64,000 bases of DNA from an uncultured Candidatus Saccharibacteria bacterium (GCA_964596395.1 CAZQSY010000001.1:27763-91762); one strand, 5' to 3'. Positions 1-35,463 are shown, counted from the first letter of the stretch. Made by a program: numbers and translations. The notes: generated from the letters alone by a model not told the origin.

Positions 1-571
1 CAAGAATCAGAATCAAAGGAAGCACAAAGACGAAATTGTAAAGAATAAGGTAAGCAAAACCCCGCCAGTAGCTTGAATAATCGTGAAGCAGCGACAGCAC
101 AAAAAGATACGGGCCGCCCGTGCAGGGAAACTCGAACATCGCTACTAAGGCGCCAAGCAGGAAAAAACCCGGCACGGAACCCTTGTTGATTACTTTCGCC
201 AGCGTGGCGTGCGTGCTTTCGGGTATTTTCAGTTTTACCGGGAAGTTCGGAAAAAATTCGCCCAATAAATTGATACCGCCGTAGGCAAAAAGTATCGCCG
301 CCCCGACTTTCGCCATTACGTTCGGCGCACCAATCGAAGCGAGCGCGCGAAGCATGCCGAGGCCAATCAGCGTATACACCAGAAATATTGCAAATATATA
401 AACCCCGCCCGAGAGCAGTACAAACTTCCTGTCTTTACCCAAACTGAACAAAAAAGCAATCGTCAAAAAAAGCACCGAAATAGCGCACGGATTTATGCTG
501 TCTATCAGCGCCGAGACAACAATCACCGGCAGAAACCCGCCCGCGCCGAGAGCAAAATATTCTGAAAACAT
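1..571 (-). CDS. CcdA/DsbD-family thiol-disulfide transmembrane electron carrier (partial, runs off window start)
   Basis: Manual translation of minus strand from ATG at 569-571: MFSEYFALGAGGFLPVIVVSALIDSINPCAISV...FEFPCTGGPYLF; paralogous to ORF 15933..16712 (same two conserved Cys motifs PC and FPC(M/T)GGPYL). Confidence 0.6.
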   Translation of the reverse strand, partial: MFSEYFALGAGGFLPVIVVSALIDSINPCAISVLFLTIAFLFSLGKDRKFVLLSGGVYIFAIFLVYTLIGLGMLRALASIGAPNVMAKVGAAILFAYGGINLLGEFFPNFPVKLKIPESTHATLAKVINKGSVPGFFLLGALVAMFEFPCTGGPYLFVLSLLHDYSSYWRGFAYLILYNFVFVLPLILIL

Positions 572-1494: not shown

Positions 1495-2235
1495 TTATCC
1501 TAGGGTAACTAGACTCATTCCCCCGTCAACGGTTAACACCTCGCCACACAGAGCATCATTTTTTGCCAGAAAAACTACCGCATCGGCGATTTCCTCTGGT
1601 TGTATCATTCTTTTTATTAGATGGACCTGCCCTAATCTTTTTTGTTTCTTTGCATTAAGATTATCCCACATGGGAGTTGCCACACGCCCCGGAGCAATAG
1701 CATTAACGAGTATTTTGGGCGCGAGATCTTTGGCTAAATTTTTCGTCCAATTTTCCAGGGCGGCCTTCAGGGCAGAATAGGCGGCGGCGGCTGGTCTACC
1801 GTATCCCAGTCGTCCGTGTATTGAGGAAATATTTACTATTTTCCCCGTCCGCATTAAGGGAAGAACGTACTTGGTTACCATCACAGCGCTTAGAAGGTTG
1901 TTCCGAAAAATACTTTCAAGCACTTTGACATTGGTTGGGTCATCGTTTGCGTCAAAAATCCCTGCGTTATTTACGAGCACATCAAAATGAGAAAATTTCC
2001 GCTTTATCTTCTTAAACATTTCAGCTACTTCTTTTTCGTTGGCAGCATCAGCGCGAATAAGCAAGTTTCCTTTAGAGTAAAGATTGCACTCCCTTAAAGT
2101 TTCTTGAGCAGCTTTACGGTCCGATTTAAAATTGATCACCACCGAAGAACCTTCCTTGGCAAAAACAATGGCAATTGCTTTGCCAATTCCCTTTGAGGCC
2201 CCAGTGACCAGCACAACCTTATTTTTCAGTTCCAT
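1495..2235 (-). CDS. short-chain dehydrogenase/reductase (FabG-like 3-oxoacyl-ACP reductase family)
   Basis: VLVTGASKGIGKAIA Rossmann motif, NNAG, YSALKAAL (YxxxK catalytic); start reset to internal ATG (MELKNKVVLVTG). Confidence 0.75.
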   Translation of the reverse strand: MELKNKVVLVTGASKGIGKAIAIVFAKEGSSVVINFKSDRKAAQETLRECNLYSKGNLLIRADAANEKEVAEMFKKIKRKFSHFDVLVNNAGIFDANDDPTNVKVLESIFRNNLLSAVMVTKYVLPLMRTGKIVNISSIHGRLGYGRPAAAAYSALKAALENWTKNLAKDLAPKILVNAIAPGRVATPMWDNLNAKKQKRLGQVHLIKRMIQPEEIADAVVFLAKNDALCGEVLTVDGGMSLVTLG

Positions 2236-2306
2236 TTTTCCATCATACCACCAAATCCCGCATGCCATCAAACTATCGTACGGAATCCTTGCTTCCATCC
2301 TTCACT

Positions 2307-3431
2307 TTACTGGTATTGTATATATATCGGCTTCGGGGAGAGATTAAGGATTTCAGCCGGTGTCATCAGGCGGGAATCTTTTTCGAGCAGGTCGTTTTTG
2401 TAGAAAAGTTTAAAGCCCGTGAACTGCACCGGCTCTTTGTGGACAAATTGCTTATAGGTATTAATTTTTCTTGCCTGATGCCCCCAGCCATCCATATCCA
2501 TGACAATCTGCGTTTCGGGCAAGGGTTTGATGTTTTGGTAATTCGTAACCATGTTCTGAGTAAAACGGTGTATTACCAAAATTTTCGGCGTAAGCTCGTT
2601 TTCCCTCACGACTCTGGCCAAAAAATCCGCCGCGAAATTTATGTCTTTGGCATCGTACGTCCCGATGACTTTGCCCGGTCTGGCCCCCGTCTTCATTGAA
2701 AATTCCGGGTCAATGCCCAGATGCACGTTCGGAAGCTTAAAATATTTTTCAAGCGGCGGAAGCTCTGCCTCTAAATTTGAAAGCCCGACCTGGATATCCA
2801 AGAAAATAAGCGCACCTATTTTCTCGGCCATTTTGAGAACTTTTTCAATCTCTTTGGCCGGCATGCGCGCCCGGTACTTGCCGTCGGCTCCGGCGCTTCC
2901 TTGCGCCACCACCGCGATATAGTGAAGCGCTGGAGTGGCGGGCGTGCCGGGGTCAGCTAATTTCCATTTTTCAACTTCAGCTTTCAGTTTCGCGAGCATT
3001 TCTTCTTCGGGGTACTCGCCGAGCGCCCCCATCTTCTTGGAAAGCAGATTGCCGTAATAGGCGATAATCCGGGAAAAAGGCAGTATCGCTCCGCCGTTCG
3101 GATAAACCGTTTTCGCCGGCCAGAGATTGGGCTTGGGAGGCAAAAGCGGTATGGGCTCGCCGGTTTTCGGGTCGATTTTGGGCTCTACTGTTTTCGGCGG
3201 CGGGTTGTTGGCCAATTCTAAAAGCTTCGCGTCATAAGCCGTTTTGTCGAGCACGGGCGGAGCGGGTTTTTTCTTTACTTCTTCGGCAATTTTCTTTACT
3301 CCGTTTATCACCTTACTAGAAAACACTTCCGGAATAAAAAAATAAAGCAGGACGATAGATATAAGCAGGAAAAAAAGCAAAAAGAGAGTACCACTTGACG
3401 TACCTTTCTGCTTTGAAAAAATATTCATCAT
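2307..3431 (-). CDS. hypothetical N-terminally anchored, Pro-rich linker protein with C-terminal TIM-barrel-like (possible glycoside hydrolase-like, DUF4015-like) domain
   Basis: TM helix + PPPKTVEPKIDPKTGEP linker + ~250 aa conserved-looking domain; family not securely recognised. Confidence 0.25.
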   Translation of the reverse strand: MMNIFSKQKGTSSGTLFLLFFLLISIVLLYFFIPEVFSSKVINGVKKIAEEVKKKPAPPVLDKTAYDAKLLELANNPPPKTVEPKIDPKTGEPIPLLPPKPNLWPAKTVYPNGGAILPFSRIIAYYGNLLSKKMGALGEYPEEEMLAKLKAEVEKWKLADPGTPATPALHYIAVVAQGSAGADGKYRARMPAKEIEKVLKMAEKIGALIFLDIQVGLSNLEAELPPLEKYFKLPNVHLGIDPEFSMKTGARPGKVIGTYDAKDINFAADFLARVVRENELTPKILVIHRFTQNMVTNYQNIKPLPETQIVMDMDGWGHQARKINTYKQFVHKEPVQFTGFKLFYKNDLLEKDSRLMTPAEILNLSPKPIYIQYQ

Positions 3432-26761: not shown

Positions 26762-27670
26762 TCATAATCCCTTCTCTGCCGCACCCCGTCGTTCGCGAAC
26801 GACGGGGTCTATGAATAAATCAAGGTCGCCGTTTAATACTTCGTCCACTTTGGCCGTCTCGGCGAGGGTTCGGTGGTCTTTGACCATTTTGTACGGGTGT
26901 AGGACGTACGAGCGAATTTGGTTCCCCCATTCAATCTCGGTATTTTTGAGCTTCATGCTCTCTTCAACGCTTTTTTCTTTCTCTTCGGCAAGCTTGAAAA
27001 TCTTGGCACGCAATATCGCCATCGCCCTTTCCCTATTCTGCTCTTGGCTGCGCTCGCCGGTCGCGTGCACCGAAATATTCGTGGGTATGTGCACCAGCCG
27101 CACAGCCGTTTCTCTTTTATTCACATTCTGCCCGCCCGGGCCGCCCGACCGGGAATATTCTATCTTTATGTCGGCCGGGTTTATGACGATATCTTTTTCT
27201 TCCAGCTTTGAAAATTTAGGCAAAACCTCTACCAGCGCGAAAGAAGTGTGGCGCAATTTTTTGGCATTGAAAGGCGAAATCCGCACCAACCGGTGCACGC
27301 CGGATTCTTTTTTCAGCTCTCCATAAACCCCCCTGCCGTCGATTTCAAAAGAGACATTGCGAAAGCCCCCGTGGTCGTTTTTGTTTTCATGAATGAAAGA
27401 AATCTGCCGGTTCTTTCGGTCGGCATGCTTCATATACATCTCCAAAAGCATCCTGGCAAAATCTTCGGCGTCGTCTCCCCCAGCCCCGGCGACAATGGTG
27501 ATAATCGCGCTGCCGCGGTCGTATTTACCCAGGCCCTCTCTTTTGCCTTTCAACTCGGCGATTTTCTTGAGCACCTCCTGCGCGTGATTCTTATCCTTCC
27601 AGAAATCCATTCCAACTGTTTCGGCCTCGAGGTTGGCTATTTCTTTTTCAATTTCTTCTTTGTGTTCCAT
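26762..27670 (-). CDS. prfB: peptide chain release factor 2 (short N-terminus, no programmed frameshift)
   Basis: SPF motif (ISPFNAKK) and GGQ in SGGPGGQNVNK; start abuts tRNA-Thr. Confidence 0.8.
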   Translation of the reverse strand: MEHKEEIEKEIANLEAETVGMDFWKDKNHAQEVLKKIAELKGKREGLGKYDRGSAIITIVAGAGGDDAEDFARMLLEMYMKHADRKNRQISFIHENKNDHGGFRNVSFEIDGRGVYGELKKESGVHRLVRISPFNAKKLRHTSFALVEVLPKFSKLEEKDIVINPADIKIEYSRSGGPGGQNVNKRETAVRLVHIPTNISVHATGERSQEQNRERAMAILRAKIFKLAEEKEKSVEESMKLKNTEIEWGNQIRSYVLHPYKMVKDHRTLAETAKVDEVLNGDLDLFIDPVVRERRGAAEKGL

Positions 27671-27671
27671 G

Positions 27672-27744
27672 AGCCGCCCCCGAGGATCGAACTCGGGACC
27701 CCAGCTTTACGAAAGCTGTGCTCTACCAACTGAGCTAGGGCGGC
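27672..27744 (-). tRNA. tRNA-Thr (anticodon CGU), no encoded CCA
   Basis: hand-folded: GCCGCCC acceptor, anticodon stem CAGCT/AGCTG loop TTCGTAA, T-loop TTCGATC. Confidence 0.75.
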
Positions 27745-27757
27745 TTGTTTTTCCCCT

Positions 27758-27806
27758 CTGTGCTCCCTGCCTGCCGGCAGGCAGGTACCAACTGAGCTAG
27801 GGCGGC
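27758..27806 (-). repeat. truncated copy of tRNA-Thr(CGU) nt 1-29 with 20-nt palindrome CCTGCCTGCCGGCAGGCAGG (27766..27785) inserted in the D-loop
   Basis: rc reads GCCGCCCTAGCTCAGTTGGTA-[palindrome]-GAGCACAG then diverges; identical to 5' of adjacent tRNA. Confidence 0.7.
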
Positions 27807-27810
27807 AGGA

Positions 27811-27886
27811 TGGAGCCGTTGATCGGGATTGAACCGATGACCTCGTCATTACCAATGACGTGCTCTACCAACTGAGCTACAACGGC
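27811..27886 (-). tRNA. tRNA-Thr (anticodon GGU), CCA encoded
   Basis: hand-folded 76-nt cloverleaf; anticodon stem CGTCA/TGACG loop TTGGTAA. Confidence 0.8.
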
Positions 27887-28131
27887 AATTTACTTTTCAA
27901 AAACTCTTTTCCCGTGCCTGACTTAAGATATCTCTCCTTAACCCTGCAATTAATGCGACTTCCACATTCTCCGTGATACAAAACTTTCCACGGCCTAAAT
28001 CCTTTAGTGGAAAAGACTCTGCCTAAATTATGATCCAAAAGTCTTTTGGAAAGATTCTGCGTCATGCCCACGTAAACCCTATTCTGTTTGTTGAACAAGG
28101 CGTAAACTAGCATTTTCAAATTATATACCAT
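27877..28131 (-). CDS. small GIY-YIG nuclease superfamily protein (YhbQ/UPF0213-like)
   Basis: VYALFNKQNRVYVGMTQNL...R...E GIY-YIG-type pattern; start reset to ATG 28131; 3' end overlaps tRNA-Thr(GGU) 5' end by ~10 nt. Confidence 0.55.
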   Translation of the reverse strand: MVYNLKMLVYALFNKQNRVYVGMTQNLSKRLLDHNLGRVFSTKGFRPWKVLYHGECGSRINCRVKERYLKSGTGKEFLKSKLPL

Positions 28132-28132
28132 G

Positions 28133-28182
28133 GACGTGCTCCCTGCCTGCCGGCAGGCAGGTACCAACTGAGCTACAACGGC
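28133..28182 (-). repeat. truncated copy of tRNA-Thr(GGU) nt 1-30 with the same 20-nt palindrome (28142..28161) inserted in the D-loop
   Basis: rc reads GCCGTTGTAGCTCAGTTGGTA-[palindrome]-GAGCACGTC then ATG of GIY-YIG gene. Confidence 0.7.
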
Positions 28183-28279
28183 TTATTGAAAAATCAAAAG
28201 AACAAGGAAATACTACTATAATTCGCTTGTTTTTTCAATGAATTCTTGCGCGACTTAGTGAAAGAGGCTAAAACTGTGA

Positions 28280-28675
28280 TTACTTCAGAATATCATTTTT
28301 CCCATTTGAATAACCCTCAATTATCCCAACTTCTTCATTATTTAAGTATTCTATATCATTAGAAACTACAGCTTTCTCAAATAGAATCTTAGAGTAAAGT
28401 CGTGGAGCATTTTCTCCGCGAGATAATGTTATATGAGGATATTTATTTTTAGATTTTGGATTCTCAACAAGAAGGTCATCGCCAAATTCATCCCATGCCC
28501 GTCCAATTATTTTTATGTTATATTCTTTTCCTATTTCTATTCCATCCAAATTTTCTGGCTCAAATTCTATTGTAGAATGATGCCCAAAGATATTTTTATG
28601 TTTTGGAGGAAATCTTTTTAATAAGTCTTGGATATCTTTAACAAACAAAGCCATAAATCTCACATTTTGATTCAT
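28280..28675 (-). CDS. putative 2H phosphoesterase superfamily protein (LigT/CPDase-like)
   Basis: two H-x-T/S-x motifs (HSTI, HITL) at appropriate spacing; weak. Confidence 0.3.
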   Translation of the reverse strand: MNQNVRFMALFVKDIQDLLKRFPPKHKNIFGHHSTIEFEPENLDGIEIGKEYNIKIIGRAWDEFGDDLLVENPKSKNKYPHITLSRGENAPRLYSKILFEKAVVSNDIEYLNNEEVGIIEGYSNGKNDILK

Positions 28676-29088
28676 AAAATGATTATATCAGTTCTTCCAT
28701 CCAATCAGTAGCAACAAAAAGAACCATATTTCGATGACTCTTTTTCTTGCGGAGTTATTAAACGAAGCTCAAACCTATTTTATTAAAAATTCGGCAGAAG
28801 TGTCAAATCCAAATTCGGCGAAAACTTTTTCATATCATTTATTTTATAAAAAATTGTAATGATTTATATATCTCTACGGCTCTACTTGAGTTAAGCGTTT
28901 TTACTGGTCGAAATCTTATTAAATAAGCGATTGGAACAAAAATATATGAACAAAAATATAGAGGAGAAAACAGAAGATACCACACCAAGTACGCCGAGTG
29001 CGCCTCCGGCTCCGAAACCACCCATGAAATAGTTAAGGTGGGGAAATTGAAGTTTATTAACTAATTATTAACTAATGTATTAAAAAGT

Positions 29089-31080
29089 ATGAAAAAAATA
29101 ATTAAAAAAATAGCGCTCTTGGCAGTACTGATGCTACCTCTAGGGATAGCTCTACCTGCACTGGCAGTAGTGGGTGCCACTTGGAACACGACGGGTAGTT
29201 ATGTAGTAAATATGAACTATCTCGGTACCGATTATGCTCACGACATGAATTTAGTTCAGGATGGCCTGGGAAACTTGACCGGTAACGGCGGTTCACCTTC
29301 GCTATCAAATGTTTACACATGGACAATCACATCTGGAACTGTTTCAGGAAATTCAGTTGATTTTCTTGCTAACTACACAGCGACTCCGGACGCAGTGACT
29401 CCCCAAACAGTGCTTCATGTGCTAGCTACGATAGCTTTAGATGGAACAATGTCTGGAACATGGTCTGACAACTATCAAGGAGGTGAGAGAACTGGCACAC
29501 TTACTACGGTAAGCGGTGCAGCGGTCCCGCTTGGCTCTCTGTCGGCTGAGGACTTTGGTGTCGTAAATTATGACACAGGTCTCGGCATGCTCAAGGGTTA
29601 CAGCGCGGGATTTGGACTCACAGATGCCACGTTTGCTGGCGCAACTTCTGTAGTTGTAAAGTTATATTCTGCCGAAAATGCTTTACTGCAAACCAACACA
29701 GCAATCTTTCCGAAGTTCAATACAGACATAACCGGGACACAATTCTCTTCCCCATTTGACGTCTCTGGAAATTTCGACTACGCCACAGATGGATATTGGG
29801 CGAATGTTAGAGAAACACAATTCGGACAAAGCACTCCCGCTACTCGTGTAGTGGCGACTGTCACACTGGCAAACGGTAAAATAGTAACTGCTGAAAACAC
29901 CAATATGGTGGGTGATGCTACTACTATCTACCCTGTAATAATTACCCCGACAGATTCCACAGTCCACATCTTCAAATTAATCGACGGTGTACAGGCGACG
30001 ACAGCCAACGCAAATAGCGTTAGCTTCCCGATGTTTACTTCTACTTACAATGCGCCGTTTACTCTCGGCCCAGGCGGCTGGACGACCGGTGACATTGATT
30101 ACGAGGCCTCAACTTCTCCAATGGCTTTGGGGTCGTCTTATAGCGCCAATGAAGTTCTCACCACCCCTCTCGTCGGTACCACTTGTGATGCAGACCATAC
30201 ATATTCTCTGATTGGGTACGGAGTCGGTAACACACTCCCAGAAGCTGTCGCGGCTACCCCGAGTATCACTACCCCAAGCTTTACCAACCTGCAAGGAGAC
30301 AAATACATAGTTGTGAGAAACCATAAATGCGAGACGACAACTCCTCCGACAACAGAAACAGGACACATAATCATCGCAAAATCAACACTTCCGAACAACA
30401 CCCAGGACTTCTTATTTACCAACAATTTTGAGAATGGTAACCCTGCGACTTTCAGTTTGGATGATGACGGCGATGCCACATTGTCAAACATGCGCGATTC
30501 TGTAGTACTTGCCGGCACATACTCCGTTTCTGAAACTGAAGTAACCGGATGGTCTTCGGTCTCGGCAACTTGTTCTGACGGTAGCCCGGTAAGTGCTATT
30601 GTTGTCTCTGCCGGCGAAACGGTTGTTTGTATGTTCATTAACGCTAAAACAGCACCGGCATCTCCGAGCATTAGCGGCATGAAATACAATGACCTTAATC
30701 GAAACGGCAAGAAAGATACCAATGAACCGGGTCTTTCTGGGTGGGTTATTAAACTAAAAGGTAATAACACTGTTGTTTCCACAACAACTGATGCGAACGG
30801 TAACTACGACTTTGTCAACATTACTCCTGGAACATACAAAGTGCGCGAAGTTCACAAAAATGGATGGAAACGTATGAGCAAGAACCCAAAAAATATTGTT
30901 ATTTCTGCCGATTCTGTTGTCACCGGTGTCAACTTTGGAAATGCGAAGAAACAAAAGTATGAAAAAGAAGACAGCGAACAAGACGACAATCGTAACGAAC
31001 AAAGCGGAAATTATTTTGGAAATCATGGAAGGAGCAACTATGAAAGAGACCAAAATAGAAAGGACCACAGCAATAGATAA
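29089..31080 (+). CDS. secreted cell-surface protein with C-terminal SdrD-B/Cna-B-like domain and charged tail
   Basis: signal peptide; C-terminal GMKYNDLNRNGKKDTNEPGLSGWVIKL...TTTDANGNYDF...GTYKV pattern. Confidence 0.5.
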   Translation: MKKIIKKIALLAVLMLPLGIALPALAVVGATWNTTGSYVVNMNYLGTDYAHDMNLVQDGLGNLTGNGGSPSLSNVYTWTITSGTVSGNSVDFLANYTATPDAVTPQTVLHVLATIALDGTMSGTWSDNYQGGERTGTLTTVSGAAVPLGSLSAEDFGVVNYDTGLGMLKGYSAGFGLTDATFAGATSVVVKLYSAENALLQTNTAIFPKFNTDITGTQFSSPFDVSGNFDYATDGYWANVRETQFGQSTPATRVVATVTLANGKIVTAENTNMVGDATTIYPVIITPTDSTVHIFKLIDGVQATTANANSVSFPMFTSTYNAPFTLGPGGWTTGDIDYEASTSPMALGSSYSANEVLTTPLVGTTCDADHTYSLIGYGVGNTLPEAVAATPSITTPSFTNLQGDKYIVVRNHKCETTTPPTTETGHIIIAKSTLPNNTQDFLFTNNFENGNPATFSLDDDGDATLSNMRDSVVLAGTYSVSETEVTGWSSVSATCSDGSPVSAIVVSAGETVVCMFINAKTAPASPSISGMKYNDLNRNGKKDTNEPGLSGWVIKLKGNNTVVSTTTDANGNYDFVNITPGTYKVREVHKNGWKRMSKNPKNIVISADSVVTGVNFGNAKKQKYEKEDSEQDDNRNEQSGNYFGNHGRSNYERDQNRKDHSNR

Positions 31081-31094
31081 AAGGTAATAAAATA

Positions 31095-31128
31095 CATCTC
31101 AAAGTATTTTACAAAATCACCCTGCCTC
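31095..31128 (+). terminator. rho-independent terminator (ATCACCC...GGGTGAT + T8)
   Basis: seen directly after stop of 29089..31080. Confidence 0.6.
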
Positions 31129-31173
31129 TAGTGGGGTGATTTTTTTTAAAAGAGAGCAGAAACCCGCGAACGG

Positions 31174-31764
31174 TTGTCATGCTTTCCGAACCCCGACGGC
31201 TCCATATATATGAAGAGACCTGTGACAACAATCATGCACGTATCGCTTATGCTCATATCTGTCGCGCTATTTCCCCTTACTTCGTCTGCGATTATTGTGG
31301 ATTATCCCGAGAGTGAATACGGCAGCATATACAAATATAATGCCTTGGAAAATAAAAATCTTTTTGTTTATGCAAAAAACGAAACAACCGCCTCTATAGA
31401 AAAAACACTTCCGCCTGCACAAGAGACAAACCTCGACATAGAAAAATTGAAAGACATCACTAAAAAACAAGCTGACTCTATAAAACAATCCGAGGATTCT
31501 ATGAGAATTGTGGGGAATAAAAGCGGCATGAAAAGATTCTTGGTTGGCGACAATTTAGGCACACTTAAATTCCAAATGGTTCAAATGAAAGACCAAAGAT
31601 ATAATTTAAACATCCTGTTGTCAAAAACAGATTCTGCTGATATTAAAACTCAAATAAATAGTCAAATAGAAACCCTGATTAGAGAAGAAAAAAAGGTCGA
31701 AAATTTTATCCTTCAGACTGAGAGCAAATTCAGTTTATTCGGTTGGTTAATAGCTTCAATTTAA
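31174..31764 (+). CDS. hypothetical secreted protein
   Basis: signal peptide-like N-terminus; no family recognised. Confidence 0.3.
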   Translation: MSCFPNPDGSIYMKRPVTTIMHVSLMLISVALFPLTSSAIIVDYPESEYGSIYKYNALENKNLFVYAKNETTASIEKTLPPAQETNLDIEKLKDITKKQADSIKQSEDSMRIVGNKSGMKRFLVGDNLGTLKFQMVQMKDQRYNLNILLSKTDSADIKTQINSQIETLIREEKKVENFILQTESKFSLFGWLIASI

Positions 31765-31768
31765 ATTT

Positions 31769-31918
31769 ATGATTACAACTATAGCAGTGGTGTTAGTAAT
31801 TCTTTGGCTTCTCGGTATGGTATCTTCCTATACAATGGGAGGGTTCATACACATACTCCTGGTAATCGCGATAATCTTCGCCCTCACCAGAGTAATCCGA
31901 GGCAGAAAAATATTATAG
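31769..31918 (+). CDS. unannotated 49-aa lmo0937-family small membrane protein (MITTIAVVLVILWLLGMVSSYTMGGFIHILLVIAIIFALTRVIRGRKIL)
   Basis: manual translation; matches the conserved ILWLLG...GG.IHILLVIA pattern of this widespread ~45-aa family. Confidence 0.55.
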   Translation: MITTIAVVLVILWLLGMVSSYTMGGFIHILLVIAIIFALTRVIRGRKIL

Positions 31919-31979
31919 AATCGTATTAGACCCACTACACCCGTAAAATTTTGGGCTTTTTTCAGTTTTAAAAATCTTG

Positions 31980-32266
31980 CGCGGCTGAAGGGTGCTGACC
32001 CCTCGACCTCTCCCGTGCACTTATCCTATATTTTCATAAAGGCGTGGACTATATCTTCGCCGTGTCCCGTAAAAACGGAATTTAGGCGCTTTGGTATCTA
32101 GTCTCTACGGAGCCCCCGCTAAGGCGGGGTTCCCACGGTGTTCGCGTGCTCCGACACGAGGTCGGAGTTTAGCCTTCACCGTTATCCCAAAGAGTTTCAA
32201 TCCGCCCTTTCGGCGGAAAGCTGCAGTAATCTACAGGGGAGTGCTCTACCGTTGAGCTACAGCCGC
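31980..32266 (-). tRNA. tRNA-Asp (anticodon GUC; loop CUGUCAC) interrupted in the anticodon loop by a ~215-nt group I intron; mature 73 nt, no encoded CCA, non-canonical T-loop (GTCAGCA)
   Basis: perfect 7-bp acceptor GCGGCTG/CAGCCGC, D-arm GCTC-AACGGTA-GAGC, anticodon stem CTCCC/GGGAG split ~215 nt apart; G73 discriminator; alternative exon boundary would give UGC but G3-C70 argues against Ala. Confidence 0.6.
32018..32232 (-). ncRNA. group I self-splicing intron (boundaries +/-3 nt)
   Basis: conserved S element AAGAUAUAGUCC and R-like GUAGAGACUAGAUAC giving P7 GACUA/UAGUC; 5' exon ends in U, intron ends in G. Confidence 0.65.
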
Positions 32267-32878
32267 GTGTATGTATTTTTCAAACACATTTTTCTTCCTT
32301 TTCAGAAACAATCTTGATGTGCCGAGCTTATTATACATAAAATAATACAATTTCAAAGCGTCTGAGGTGCTGTACTGCAATCTGGAAAAATCTTTCTTTT
32401 TTGACCTATAAACACAGCCACCTCGCAAACCAAGCGCGCGAAGCTTTATGTATAAGCTGCGCATGAAGTCGTGCGACCCCGAAGTGAAGGCCAGCTGTAA
32501 AACCTTGTGTTTAGTTTTCCTGTTCTTGTGGACTTCCCCGGACCAAATATTCCCATCACCATCAAAGTAACCCCTCACAAAATGAGGCGTGTATTTCAAA
32601 GGTATGCGCGGAATTTTCAGGTATTTAGTTTTTCTCTCCCCGAAACCAATTTCTCGCAAATCGTCACACATTTCCTTGCTGCCAATCTGGATCCTGTATT
32701 TGGTACTCTCCCCGATTTTGGAAGACAAACGTACGCTGATTTTATGTTCAGACCTCAAAGCCTTCTTAATACTTTCTAAGAGTTTTTTGTCGCTAATCTG
32801 TATGCACCAAAATTGCCCGCCGCGTTTATTCACAGTTATGTATCCATCGGCGGCAAAAAAACCTAAAACGTACGCCAT
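32246..32878 (-). CDS. LAGLIDADG homing endonuclease (two-motif, single-chain)
   Basis: LGFFAADGYI and RGYFDGDGNI motifs; start reset to ATG 32878 (listed N-terminus is antisense translation of tRNA-Met); stop overlaps 5' exon of intron-containing tRNA. Confidence 0.7.
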   Translation of the reverse strand: MAYVLGFFAADGYITVNKRGGQFWCIQISDKKLLESIKKALRSEHKISVRLSSKIGESTKYRIQIGSKEMCDDLREIGFGERKTKYLKIPRIPLKYTPHFVRGYFDGDGNIWSGEVHKNRKTKHKVLQLAFTSGSHDFMRSLYIKLRALGLRGGCVYRSKKKDFSRLQYSTSDALKLYYFMYNKLGTSRLFLKRKKNVFEKYIHAAVAQR

Positions 32879-32991
32879 CTTCGGAGTCCATCTCTTAAAG
32901 AAATTCTTGTTGATTTTTATATGCACCGGCACAAATATATTATATCTAGTGACAGGATAATATACTAACCGTGCTGGGGAAAAAATTGCTG

Positions 32992-33067
32992 TGGTGTCGG
33001 GGGTGGGAATCGAACCCACGACCCTGGGCTTATGAGTCCCATGCTCTACCGACTGAGCTACCCCGAC
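32992..33067 (-). tRNA. tRNA-Met/Ile2 (anticodon CAU), CCA encoded
   Basis: hand-folded: GTCGGGG acceptor, D GCTC/GAGC, loop CTCATAA, T-loop TTCGATT. Confidence 0.7.
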
Positions 33068-33186
33068 ATAAGGTGGAGAATAGCATATTTCCAATCTTTT
33101 TCAAATTTGCAATTTTCTTTAATTAAGTTAGTATGTTAGGTACGAGCAGGCACGCTGCGCCAGATGGTTTGCCGTCTTAAAATTAT

Positions 33187-33257
33187 AGCGGGGTAGAGAA
33201 GAGGCATCTCGTAAGGCTCATAACCTTAAGACTCTGGTTCGATTCCAGACCCCGCAA
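33187..33257 (+). tRNA. second tRNA with CAU anticodon (Met/initiator/Ile2 undetermined), A1-A72 mismatch, no CCA
   Basis: hand-folded: (A)GCGGGG/CCCCGC(A), D GAGA/TCTC, anticodon stem TAAGG/CCTTA loop CTCATAA, T-loop TTCGATT. Confidence 0.55.
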
Positions 33258-33352
33258 CAAGCAAATTGATTTGCTTTTGCGCCGATTTTGCGGGTTAGCA
33301 AAAATGGCCGTTGCTAAGCAAAGCGAGGCAGGCCATAGGGGCGACAAGCAAA

Positions 33353-34000
33353 TTAAATATATCCAAACTCGGCGAAAATGTTTTCGTACAAGCTGATTAC
33401 CCTTCTCGTTTCATGCTGAGAAAGGCTGAAGTCCGAGCCCTCATGCGCTATTTTGTTGCGTACGTTGTGCGCGTCCCAGGCCAGGTCTAAGGTGCGAAAA
33501 CTCTCCCGGTCAGCCATTTTCAGTTTGTCCCCGACCGTGTCGCCTTTGAAGCCGCGCTCGTTTAGAAGGTCGTAAAGCATTAAATCTGCTTCAATCACGG
33601 CGAGCCGCCAGTCGTTCTCGCTCACCGAAAAAGCGTAATCCAAGACCTTCTTCCAGCGCGGATTTTTGAACACTCCCTCCTCCCGCGCTTTTTTCTCACG
33701 CAAGGCCTGGTTGTGTTTGTATTCCTCGAGTTCGTGGTGCAGATGCGCGTGCTCCTTTTTCCTAATTTCAAACATCCTGACCGTGGTGTAAATGATAACC
33801 GCGATGAAGAAGAGGGATAAGACAGTCATAACCGTATATATGCCGTGCAATGTTTCCCTGGTAAAGATAGCGCCGGCAATATCCGACAGAATGCCGTAAA
33901 GATATCCCGGGTTGAAAAATTTTGAATCCAAAAAAGAACCTTCAAGGTAGGGGCTCGTCTTTGAGAGGGTTTCAGCGGCATAAACGTACATAGCGCTCAC
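33353..34000 (-). CDS. membrane-anchored hypothetical protein with C-terminal HEPN-like domain (R-x4-H: VRNKIAHEG)
   Basis: one TM helix then soluble domain; HEPN assignment from motif only. Confidence 0.3.
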   Translation of the reverse strand: MSAMYVYAAETLSKTSPYLEGSFLDSKFFNPGYLYGILSDIAGAIFTRETLHGIYTVMTVLSLFFIAVIIYTTVRMFEIRKKEHAHLHHELEEYKHNQALREKKAREEGVFKNPRWKKVLDYAFSVSENDWRLAVIEADLMLYDLLNERGFKGDTVGDKLKMADRESFRTLDLAWDAHNVRNKIAHEGSDFSLSQHETRRVISLYENIFAEFGYI

Positions 34001-35463
34001 TTATTATCCCGCAAATCTTCTTCTATGGCAAACAAAGACATGTCTTTCGCATAAGGGGCGGTGAATTCGACGCCGAAAGGCAGGCCGTCTTTCGAGAAAC
34101 CAGAGGGAACAGAAATCGAGGGCAGGCCGGCTAAATTCGCTGAAACCGTAAAAATATCCGAGAGATACATCTGCACCGGGTCTTTCTTTTCGCCCAGCTT
34201 GAAAGCGGTCGTGGGCGTGGTGGGGGTCATCACAAAACCAACCTCTTTGTAAATTGTTTCGTACTCTTTCATGATTTCGCGGCGCACTTTCCAGGCCTGG
34301 TTGTAATAAGCATCGTAGTAGCCGTGTAAAAGAACATACGCGCCCAAAATCACTCTCCTTCTGGTTTCCCGCCCGAAACCGGTTGACCGGCTTTTTTTCA
34401 TGACTTCAAAAATATTGTGACCTTCCTGCCTCAACCCGTAACGCATGCCTTCTAGACGAGCTAGATTAGTAGAAACCTCAGCCGGCAGAATTATATAGTA
34501 GGCCGGCAGAGAATATTTCAGATACGGCATTGAAACGTCTTTCGTCTCATAACCCTTGGCGCGCAATTTTTCCAGCGTTTCTTCAAAATTTTTCAAAACC
34601 TCCGGGTCGACACCCTCTTTCAAAAAATCACGCGGGATGCCGATGACAGAGGCGGAGGAGGGCAAGGATTTTTGAGCGTCTGGTTGAGCCCCGGAGGGGC
34701 GACCCGAGGACCGAAAAAATCCTTGCCCTCCGGAGCTTACATCAATAGACGTCGCGTCCATCTCGTCTTTGCCTACGATGCATTCGTAAATTATTTTCGC
34801 GTCTTCGGATGTTTTAGCGAGCGGCCCTATCTGGTCGAGCGAAGAAGACAAAGCGGTAAGGCCGCGCCGCGATACGGCACCGTAGGTCGGCTTCATACCG
34901 ACAATCCCGCAGAAAGCCGCCGGCTGGCGGATTGATCCGCCGGTGTCGGAACCCAAAGCTCCGAGCGCCATGCCGGCGGCCACCGCCGCGGCCGAACCGC
35001 CCGAAGAACCACCGGGCACCCGGGAAGGGTCGAGAGGATTTCTGGCCGGACCATAAGCAGAATTCTCGGTCGAAGAACCCATGGCGAATTCATCCATATT
35101 CGTACGGCCGATGAAAACCGCGCCGGCCTCTTTTAGTTTTTCTATCACAAAAGCGTCATAGCTCGCCGTATAATTTTCGAGAATCTTGGAAGCAGAGCTC
35201 GTTTTTCGGCCGGTTATCAAGATGTTGTCTTTGACGGCAAGCGGTATGCCGGTAAGCAGCGCGCCTCTGCCTGCTTTTATCATTTCGTCGGAACGTTTCG
35301 CCTGTTCCAGCACGTCATCGAAAACCTCCAGGAAAATATTCAGTTCCTTGTTTTTTGCTTCAATATTTTTTAGGCAGGCCGAAACCAAGTCAACCGAAGT
35401 CAGCTTGCCCTCGCGCATCATTTTACCCGCCGCGGAAATTGTCAGACCCTTAACGTCAATCAT
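33997..35463 (-). CDS. gatA: Glu-tRNA(Gln)/Asp-tRNA(Asn) amidotransferase subunit A
   Basis: amidase signature GGSSGGSAAAVAAG, Ser-cisSer-Lys triad context; contains low-complexity insertion. Confidence 0.85.
   Translation of the reverse strand: MIDVKGLTISAAGKMMREGKLTSVDLVSACLKNIEAKNKELNIFLEVFDDVLEQAKRSDEMIKAGRGALLTGIPLAVKDNILITGRKTSSASKILENYTASYDAFVIEKLKEAGAVFIGRTNMDEFAMGSSTENSAYGPARNPLDPSRVPGGSSGGSAAAVAAGMALGALGSDTGGSIRQPAAFCGIVGMKPTYGAVSRRGLTALSSSLDQIGPLAKTSEDAKIIYECIVGKDEMDATSIDVSSGGQGFFRSSGRPSGAQPDAQKSLPSSASVIGIPRDFLKEGVDPEVLKNFEETLEKLRAKGYETKDVSMPYLKYSLPAYYIILPAEVSTNLARLEGMRYGLRQEGHNIFEVMKKSRSTGFGRETRRRVILGAYVLLHGYYDAYYNQAWKVRREIMKEYETIYKEVGFVMTPTTPTTAFKLGEKKDPVQMYLSDIFTVSANLAGLPSISVPSGFSKDGLPFGVEFTAPYAKDMSLFAIEEDLRDNK

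Follow-up and report, generated by a model that had tools for sequence, protein, structure and literature searches.

The minus strand of the DNA analysed here, a stretch of 64,000 nt from an uncultured Candidatus Saccharibacteria bacterium (GCA_964596395.1, CAZQSY010000001.1:27763-91762; hereafter the window, with positions counted from its first letter), carries between 32266 and 31980 the two halves of a tRNA-Asp(GUC) gene and, directly upstream of them, a gene for a LAGLIDADG protein. We read the region as a tRNA-Asp(GUC) gene of a Patescibacteria (candidate phyla radiation, CPR) genome in which a group I intron of 215 nt, without an open reading frame (ORF), separates U35 from C36, and we put the probability of this reading at roughly 0.93. 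An earlier note, made from the sequence alone, had described tRNA-Asp halves flanking about 215 nt on this strand, and every feature that it listed is there, with a gap of 215 nt. The class of introns to which this one belongs has already been published, and the copy in the window is a further example of that class and not a discovery.

The 5′ exon (tRNA nucleotides 1-35; 32266..32233; all features lie on the minus strand unless another is named) reads GCGGCUG-UA-GCUC-AACGGUA-GAGC-A-CUCCC-CUGU and holds the 5′ strand of the acceptor stem, the D-arm and the 5′ strand of the anticodon stem, followed by C32 U33 G34 U35. The 3′ exon (32017..31980) reads CAC-GGGAG-AGGUC-GAGGG-GUCAGCA-CCCUU-CAGCCGC-G and supplies C36 A37 C38, the 3′ strand of the anticodon stem, the variable loop, the T-arm, the 3′ strand of the acceptor stem and G73. 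The tRNA thus runs from G1 at 32266 to its discriminator, G73, at 31980; CCA is not encoded at the 3′ end. With long introns allowed and the score threshold set to 90% (-ps90), ARAGORN calls tRNA-Asp(gtc) i(35,215), a 215-nt intron after position 35, and the exons joined without 32018..32232 are called tRNA-Asp(gtc) at default settings; the earlier note had named an intron-tolerant tRNA search and the folding of the joined exons as checks on its proposal, and both came out in its favour. The cloverleaf left after removal of the intron has the anticodon GUC together with G73, C38 and G10, which serve as identity elements of tRNA-Asp, and all four of its stems covary among homologs.

The intron itself (32232..32018) begins AGAUUACUGCAG and ends AUAAGUG. 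Its omega-G is 32018, and a terminal G is present in all 25 introns compared; a 5′ exon ending in U and an intron ending in G, as the note had it, are thus read directly as U35 and G32018. P1 (32221..32236) pairs exon CUGU and intron AG (32236..32231) with the internal guide CUGCAG (32226..32221). It sets a U35·G wobble at the 5′ splice site in 21 of 21 homologs, and the first intron pair covaries between A-U, C-G and G-C. The P2 hairpin (UCCGCC/GGCGGA with a GAAA-type loop; 32201..32217) shows compensatory changes in six of its six pairs. P3 joins CUUUGG (32187..32192) to CCAAAG (32094..32089), is 100% paired with four of six pairs covarying, and crosses P7 to form the core pseudoknot. P4 (ACGGUG/CACCGU), P5 (GC/GC within GCUAAA...CACGC) and P5a (CUCCGAC/GUCGGAG) occupy 32135..32182, and P6 (GG/CC) and P6a (CCCCGC/GCGGGG) occupy 32109..32134. 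Covariation supports both blocks, and the alignment-based folding program RNAalifold recovers P5a, in which it sees covarying pairs, as well as P6 and P6a. P7 is made of GACUA (32103..32099), in the R-like element GUAGAGACUAGAUAC, and UAGUC (32051..32047), in the S element AAGAUAUAGUCC, as the note had proposed; both strands are invariant in the 21 homologs and fall in the core of the Rfam alignment. P8 (CGCC/GGCG) and a distal hairpin (CCGU/ACGG) span 32058..32088, with three of the four basal pairs covarying and the distal stem coming from RNAalifold. The P9 hairpin (CCUUUAU-GAAA-AUAUAGG; 32042..32025), in which six of seven pairs covary, is enclosed by P9.0 (32019..32045), a pairing of AC 32045..32044 with GU 32020..32019 that changes from C-G to U-A in three sequences.

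In most homologs the internal loop of P5 is GCUAAG...UAUGC, and L2 and L9 are GAAA loops, which we take to resemble the 11-nt GAAA-tetraloop receptor arrangement of small group I introns. A P7.1/P7.2 insertion is not visible between P3′ and P8 in the sequence of the window intron. The hexamer CUGUAG of the 5′ strand of P1 (32231..32236) recurs at tRNA positions 5-10 (32257..32262); pairing of the internal guide with this second copy, which runs from the acceptor stem through G10, is conceivable, and the repeat is probably a coincidence.

The Rfam model Intron_gpI (RF00028) aligns over its full length (model 1-253) to 32242..32025, with E = 8e-7 for a 651-nt region and 8e-5 for the whole window, in which it is the sole such match. 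Permissive thresholds were used here, and the published survey discussed below likewise relied on an E-value cut-off and not on the gathering score. The minimum free energy of the precursor has a z-score of -4.71, and none of 200 shuffles folds equally well.

Homologous loci, cited below by their L numbers, were collected with two core patterns: an exact 24-nt pattern gave seven loci in species-representative genomes, and a 16-nt pattern gave 120 metagenome loci. All seven of the former come from metagenome-assembled genomes (MAGs) assigned to Saccharibacteria, Parcubacteria, Paceibacterota or Patescibacteria, and the gene order around the window locus is common to such MAGs. The host is tRNA-Asp(GUC) in five of these seven; in the other two the loop reads CUGU|UAA, that of Asn(GUU), and ARAGORN calls these tRNAs Thr(UGU) at 33/34. 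Covariation rests only on a tRNA-Asp set checked by hand from the exons, comprising the window, 18 distinct loci from the two scans and three reached through protein look-ups; three published tRNA-Asp precursors (Table S3 of PMC13011429) were also taken. The intron core also occurs in tRNA-Asn(GUU) at 35/36 (L003, L005 and many of L008-L127), where ARAGORN reports Thr(tgt) i33 and sometimes Asp, and unverified ARAGORN calls place it in Tyr, Phe, Leu(taa), Ser and His tRNAs as well. Among loci whose host is not tRNA-Asp, some introns are 500-850 nt long and may contain ORFs.

For the covariation analysis, 21 precursors were aligned and scored against a structure written from the window (four tRNA stems, P1-P6, P6a, the P7 pseudoknot, P8 and P9). 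Standard pairs fill 96.3% of the 1428 cells (68 pairs in 21 precursors), and sliding the 3′ partners by 1-3 columns brings this down to 38-49%. Changes on both sides occur in 36 of the 68 pairs, and no shuffle in 500 reaches any of the observed measures. Pairing is 89-100% in P3, P4, P5, P6, P8 and P9, which show compensatory changes. In P7 it is 100%, and P7, like J8/7 and J6/7 of the catalytic core, is invariant across homologs. Because P7, the most conserved part of the intron, does not vary, it is uninformative on pairing, and its conservation fits the guanosine site, as expected. RNAalifold, which cannot draw pseudoknots, was given no structure and independently finds the cloverleaf, P1-P6 including P5a and P6a, P8 and the stem distal to it, P9 and a two-pair P9.0 that lies directly before the terminal G and contains the C-G to U-A change (columns 315/340). 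The covariation of the 21 precursors thus supports the P1-P9 core whose foldability the earlier note had left to be checked. The comparison with related loci that it had also suggested turned up genes that occupy the matching syntenic position but lack the intron: in L131/L132, L134 and L137 a contiguous tRNA-Asp(GUC), CCUGUCACGG, follows the same LAGLIDADG gene, and its anticodon loop reads CUGUCAC, the loop predicted for the spliced product of the window gene.

The same kind of intron was described by Nakagawa et al. (mSystems 2026; PMC13011429; bioRxiv 10.1101/2025.07.03.662931), who reported group I introns at 35/36 within both tRNA-Asn and tRNA-Asp of Patescibacteria. The view that an Asp host would be unusual, taken in the earlier note, is outdated by these publications of 2025-2026. 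Among 95 complete genomes they found 15 tRNA-Asn(GUU) and three tRNA-Asp(GUC) genes with such introns. One intron of each host self-splices in vitro, with junctions sequenced and an omega-G to C control; for tRNA-Asp this is the intron of GCA_001029755.1, whose self-splicing depends on GTP (PMC13011429). Over aligned columns the window intron is 85%, 72% and 67% identical to the three published tRNA-Asp introns, the highest value belonging to the Paceibacteria intron of GCA_023898525.1 and the lowest to the experimentally spliced one. It shares with the published introns the host tRNA, the insertion site (CUGU|...G|CAC in a GUN anticodon), a CUGU/GCAG P1 with U35·G, a length of about 200 nt without an ORF and the same core sequences. 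It differs in that the genome is distinct, the sequence matches none of the three tRNA-Asp cases, and its lineage has the T-loop GUCAGCA and, next to the tRNA, a free-standing LAGLIDADG gene, neither of which is mentioned in that paper. The covariance model, the covariation, the intron-less orthologs and the published splicing of a homolog agree on a group I intron in tRNA-Asp(GUC).

The classical bacterial tRNA introns, those of cyanobacterial and plastid tRNA-Leu(UAA) at 34/35, tRNA-fMet at 33/34, and Agrobacterium tRNA-Arg(CCU) and Azoarcus tRNA-Ile(CAU) at 36/37, are likewise small, mostly ORF-less, self-splicing and placed in the anticodon loop, with an exon U·G, an omega-G and GAAA in L2/L9. 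The window intron departs from them in its site, 35/36, and in the GUN anticodon family of its host. About 81% of bacterial tRNA introns belong to subgroup IC, none of them from Patescibacteria; of the 28 introns that sit at 35/36, 25 are classed as IA, and the 35/36 site is enriched in Patescibacteria (PMC13011429).

A tRNA-Ala(UGC) host interrupted at 33/34, which would split the loop two bases upstream as CU|...G|UGCAC, is extremely improbable and was rejected: the GU dinucleotide repeated at both boundaries lets either split place a U before the intron and a G at its end, and ARAGORN and tFind give Ala for some homologs (L073 is Ala(tgc) by ARAGORN), but the U·G wobble of P1 falls on U35 whereas U33 pairs with A, the discriminator is G73, the intron-less orthologs read CUGUCAC, and position 3:70 is G-C in 21 of 21 precursors (columns 3/377), so that the G3:U70 pair by which the identity rules set tRNA-Ala apart from tRNA-Asp is absent. 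The same Ala mis-calls are reported in PMC13011429, where the sequenced reverse-transcription PCR junction of the spliced homolog is 35/36.

Several points weigh against an intron-bearing, functional tRNA-Asp gene. The Intron_gpI match scores 33.6 bits, under the Rfam gathering score of 50 bits, so that standard annotation misses the gene; of the covariance check that the earlier note had proposed, the full-length match stood and the score fell short. ARAGORN calls the interrupted gene only at the relaxed threshold, and at its default, together with Rfam at gathering thresholds, it yields five tRNAs elsewhere in the window but none at the tRNA-Asp locus. A convincing P10 could not be drawn when the 3′ exon CAC(G) was searched against the guide region, and because such pairing is only possible by re-using the wobble G, we do not claim one. 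Neither ARAGORN nor Rfam finds a second tRNA-Asp within the 64-kb window, and another, intron-less one is possible elsewhere in the genome, beyond the 64 kb covered. Catalysis by the window copy itself is inferred. Finally, the T-loop, GUCAGCA (31988..31994), has G54 and G58 where T54 and A58 are canonical and keeps U55, C56 and A57, and a T-loop of this kind could in principle mean an impaired tRNA.

The T-loop, whose oddity the note had flagged, recurs in at least eight other loci. GUCAGCA is found in the window, L001, L004, L012, L067, L130, L133, L135 and L136, always in a tRNA-Asp with the acceptor stem GCGGCUG; the other tRNAs of the window have canonical T-loops. Because the anticodon and T stems of these copies vary in a compensatory way, we take the T-loop to be maintained and not a product of decay, and this conservation argues against impairment. 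A literature search on T-loops with G54/G58 returned nothing specific, and the conserved loop breaks with a feature that is nearly universal among tRNAs. The subthreshold Rfam score, the non-canonical T-loop and the failure of default ARAGORN to call the interrupted gene are also what would be expected if the gene were dead, a disrupted tRNA whose intron is a relic in decay and has lost the ability to splice. This is very improbable, since every tRNA stem and nearly every intron helix is kept by compensatory changes over 21 loci, the odd T-loop is conserved in at least nine loci while the T and anticodon stems covary, P7, J8/7 and J6/7 do not change at all, and the window contains no other tRNA-Asp.

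On the main reading, a tRNA-Asp gene with a group I intron, splicing would proceed as follows. C32 U33 G34 U35 and the first two intron bases would pair with the guide CUGCAG to form P1, in which U35·G would mark the 5′ splice site, and the P3/P7 pseudoknot would be the centre around which the P3-P8 and P4-P6 domains fold. The first attack, after U35, would come from an exogenous guanosine bound at P7; P9.0 would then bring the terminal G (32018) into that site, and the 3′-OH released on U35 would attack after G32018, joining CUGU to CAC and restoring the anticodon loop CUGUCAC. The tRNA would be finished by RNase P and by CCA addition, the latter because CCA is not encoded.

The gene directly upstream of tRNA-Asp on the same strand (32932..32246) encodes a protein of 228 aa with two LAGLIDADG motifs and is free-standing, outside the intron; its GTG start at 32932 was set by comparison with homologs. 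Its TAG stop codon (32248..32246) falls within the D-arm of tRNA-Asp, the gene itself supplying none. In most relatives the ORF ends ...RL*, its last codons CGG-CUG-UAG being tRNA nucleotides 2-10, with U8-A9-G10 as TAG. It may also be that RNase P, in processing tRNA-Asp, cuts the stop codon off the nuclease mRNA and thereby restricts its expression. The protein matches Pfam PF14528 (LAGLIDADG_3) with 47.6 bits against a cut-off of 22.5, and in 13 homologs (mean column identity 68%) the motifs LGFFAADGY and RGYFDGDGN and the acidic residues D29 and D126 are invariant. A database search gave 2075 relatives, the best 120 of which are 57-72% identical to it. Searched by sequence against the PDB, the protein had no match. 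Its AlphaFold model (pLDDT 78) is matched by Foldseek to I-Tsp061I (2dch), I-AniI (1p8k), the I-OnuI family and the bI3 maturase (2ab5), with E-values of 1e-9 to 6e-8 and TM values of 0.57-0.66. Like these monomeric LAGLIDADG enzymes, it has two LAGLIDADG helices with an acidic residue on each, but identity to them is only 12-19%, and they are encoded within introns, whereas the window gene is free-standing and ends inside a tRNA gene.

The association of this gene with tRNA-Asp, with tRNA-Met on its other side, recurs in many Patescibacteria. L074 and L103, which have exons of the published Microgenomatia type and no LAGLIDADG match upstream, being left out, 16 of the remaining 17 tRNA-Asp intron loci have a LAGLIDADG gene or a remnant of one upstream, and none of about 90 loci with the same intron family in other tRNAs does. 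When contexts were sampled from the protein instead, the gene stood immediately before tRNA-Asp in nine of nine, with the intron present in six (L128, L130, L133, L135, L136, L138) and absent in three (L131/L132, L134, L137). The spacer from tRNA-Met to tRNA-Asp measures 725 nt in the window, where the gene is intact, and 573, 501, 392, 174 and 109 nt in a series of other loci; a C-terminal remnant lies beside the tRNA in four of these five shorter spacers, and none is detectable in the 573-nt spacer (L012). Identity to the window copy is 41-68% for the LAGLIDADG protein and 49-55% for the adjacent gatA product, a similar divergence. We read the gene as a free-standing one of homing-endonuclease type that is bound up with the 5′ flank of tRNA-Asp, has resided there for a long time and is decaying in some lineages. 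In L137 (about 2160..2330) the LAGLIDADG ORF ends in a duplicated 5′ fragment of tRNA-Asp (GCAGTCGTAGCT), and an intact, intron-less tRNA-Asp follows some 70 nt later; the duplication looks like a scar of recombination or of insertion of the nuclease cassette. The recurring insertion point, the shortening spacer and this duplication are indirect signs of site-specific cleavage and homing. PMC13011429 makes no mention of this neighbouring gene, and a literature search for such a gene in Patescibacteria found nothing.

If the LAGLIDADG protein acted as a maturase in the manner of I-AniI or bI3, it would be needed or helpful for splicing in vivo, a role compatible with the group I reading of the intron itself. 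The gene and the tRNA adjoin without a gap, its conservation is similar to that of gatA nearby, and the bifunctional I-AniI and the bI3 maturase are among its top fold matches. However, the same gene stands beside intron-less tRNA-Asp (L131/L132, L134, L137), and introns persist where it has decayed or is undetectable (L001, L004, L075, L116, L012) as well as in L074 and L103, of Microgenomatia-type exons, which have no match upstream; in addition, the published Microgenomatia homolog self-splices without protein, and both catalytic Asp residues are retained, as for a nuclease. We therefore regard a maturase role as quite unlikely.

A collaborative homing pair, in which the nuclease would cut intron-less tRNA-Asp where the intron inserts and carriers of the intron would be protected by it, is established as a concept in phages (PMC3984707, PMC6083498, PMC2790892). 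It would account for a gene or remnant at 16 of 17 tRNA-Asp intron loci of other than Microgenomatia type and at none of about 90 loci in other tRNAs, and a mere 35 bp or so lie between the end of the gene and the intron site, so that gene-conversion tracts would carry both. On the other hand, intact genes stand beside intron-less tRNA-Asp whose anticodon arm is almost identical to that of the spliced window gene (L131: CUCCCCUGUCACGGGAG), and under collaborative homing such loci would cleave themselves; the intron is also absent from three of the nine protein-first contexts. In its strict form the pair was rejected, since the nuclease gene also adjoins intron-less tRNA-Asp (L131/L132, L134, L137), and overall we consider it unlikely. 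Co-conversion of the intron, which lies 35 bp from the LAGLIDADG gene, is still possible. An active homing endonuclease may target the 5′ flank of tRNA-Asp, with its conversion tracts dragging the ORF-less intron 35 bp away along with them; we offer this tentatively and would sooner bet against it than for it. The arrangement resembles that of the free-standing homing endonucleases of phages, the T4 seg/mob genes and F-CphI beside psbA (PMC2790892, PMC6083498, PMC3984707), in which a nuclease gene outside introns is wedged beside a highly conserved target gene, is polymorphic in presence, absence and decay, and lies near enough to an ORF-less intron for co-conversion. It differs from them in being a predicted LAGLIDADG enzyme, in a bacterial chromosome rather than a phage, and in adjoining intron-less alleles too, a misfit with strict collaborative homing.

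Farther upstream, a tRNA search finds tRNA-Met(CAU) at 32992..33067, with a GGG/CCC anticodon stem and a paired 1:72, preceded by a promoter-like site (33104..33077) that is a consensus match only. A scan for promoters and terminators gave counts no higher than in shuffles, and it can therefore only be guessed that tRNA-Met, the nuclease gene and tRNA-Asp are transcribed together. A further tRNA-Met(CAU), at 33187..33258 on the plus strand, has an A1/A72 mismatch atop its acceptor stem. The order of genes around the locus (26762..35463 in the window; L128, L131, L134-L138) is deeply conserved, running from gatA through an ORF of about 200 aa, two tRNA-Met genes and the LAGLIDADG gene to tRNA-Asp, and onwards to two tRNA-Thr genes, prfA and ftsE/ftsX. 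In the window, a 4-kb insert with an SdrD/SpaA-like surface protein gene (29089..31080, plus strand) parts tRNA-Asp from the tRNA-Thr pair. In L131 (2059..2280) and L138 (1075..1380) small ORFs with a GIY-YIG domain are placed inside the tRNA-Met pair that lies just upstream of the LAGLIDADG gene, and more than one family of nuclease genes seems to accumulate in this tRNA cluster. In L116 a tRNA-Met(CAU) beside the tRNA-Asp locus (181..500, complement) has a 248-nt intron, placed at 33/34 by ARAGORN, and the two intron-bearing tRNA genes lie less than 600 nt apart. A phage origin of the region was rejected: megablast of 30000-35000 against phage records came back empty, and the context is chromosomal (gatA, prfA, ftsX).

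The existence, site and self-splicing of such introns being already published, the intron itself teaches little that is new, and it adds one lineage to the published class. The tRNA-Asp gene, uncalled by default ARAGORN and by Rfam searches at the gathering score, is a further case of the annotation gap described in PMC13011429, where tools fail with Ala and Thr mis-calls and where tRNAscan-SE and tFind miss such genes in other genomes; with genes of this kind uncalled, the completeness and the decoding capacity of these genomes are under-estimated. Within the literature searched, what is new lies mainly in the unreported neighbouring nuclease gene and in the odd T-loop. The published survey concluded that tRNA introns of this phylum mostly lack homing endonucleases and hence rarely move (PMC13011429); a LAGLIDADG gene that is widespread, variously decayed and only 35 bp away is a candidate vehicle for the intron that was not considered there. 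If an active homing endonuclease does target the flank of tRNA-Asp, this would explain how tRNA-Asp introns without a homing endonuclease gene of their own have spread, as well as why GIY-YIG genes gather in the same tRNA cluster.

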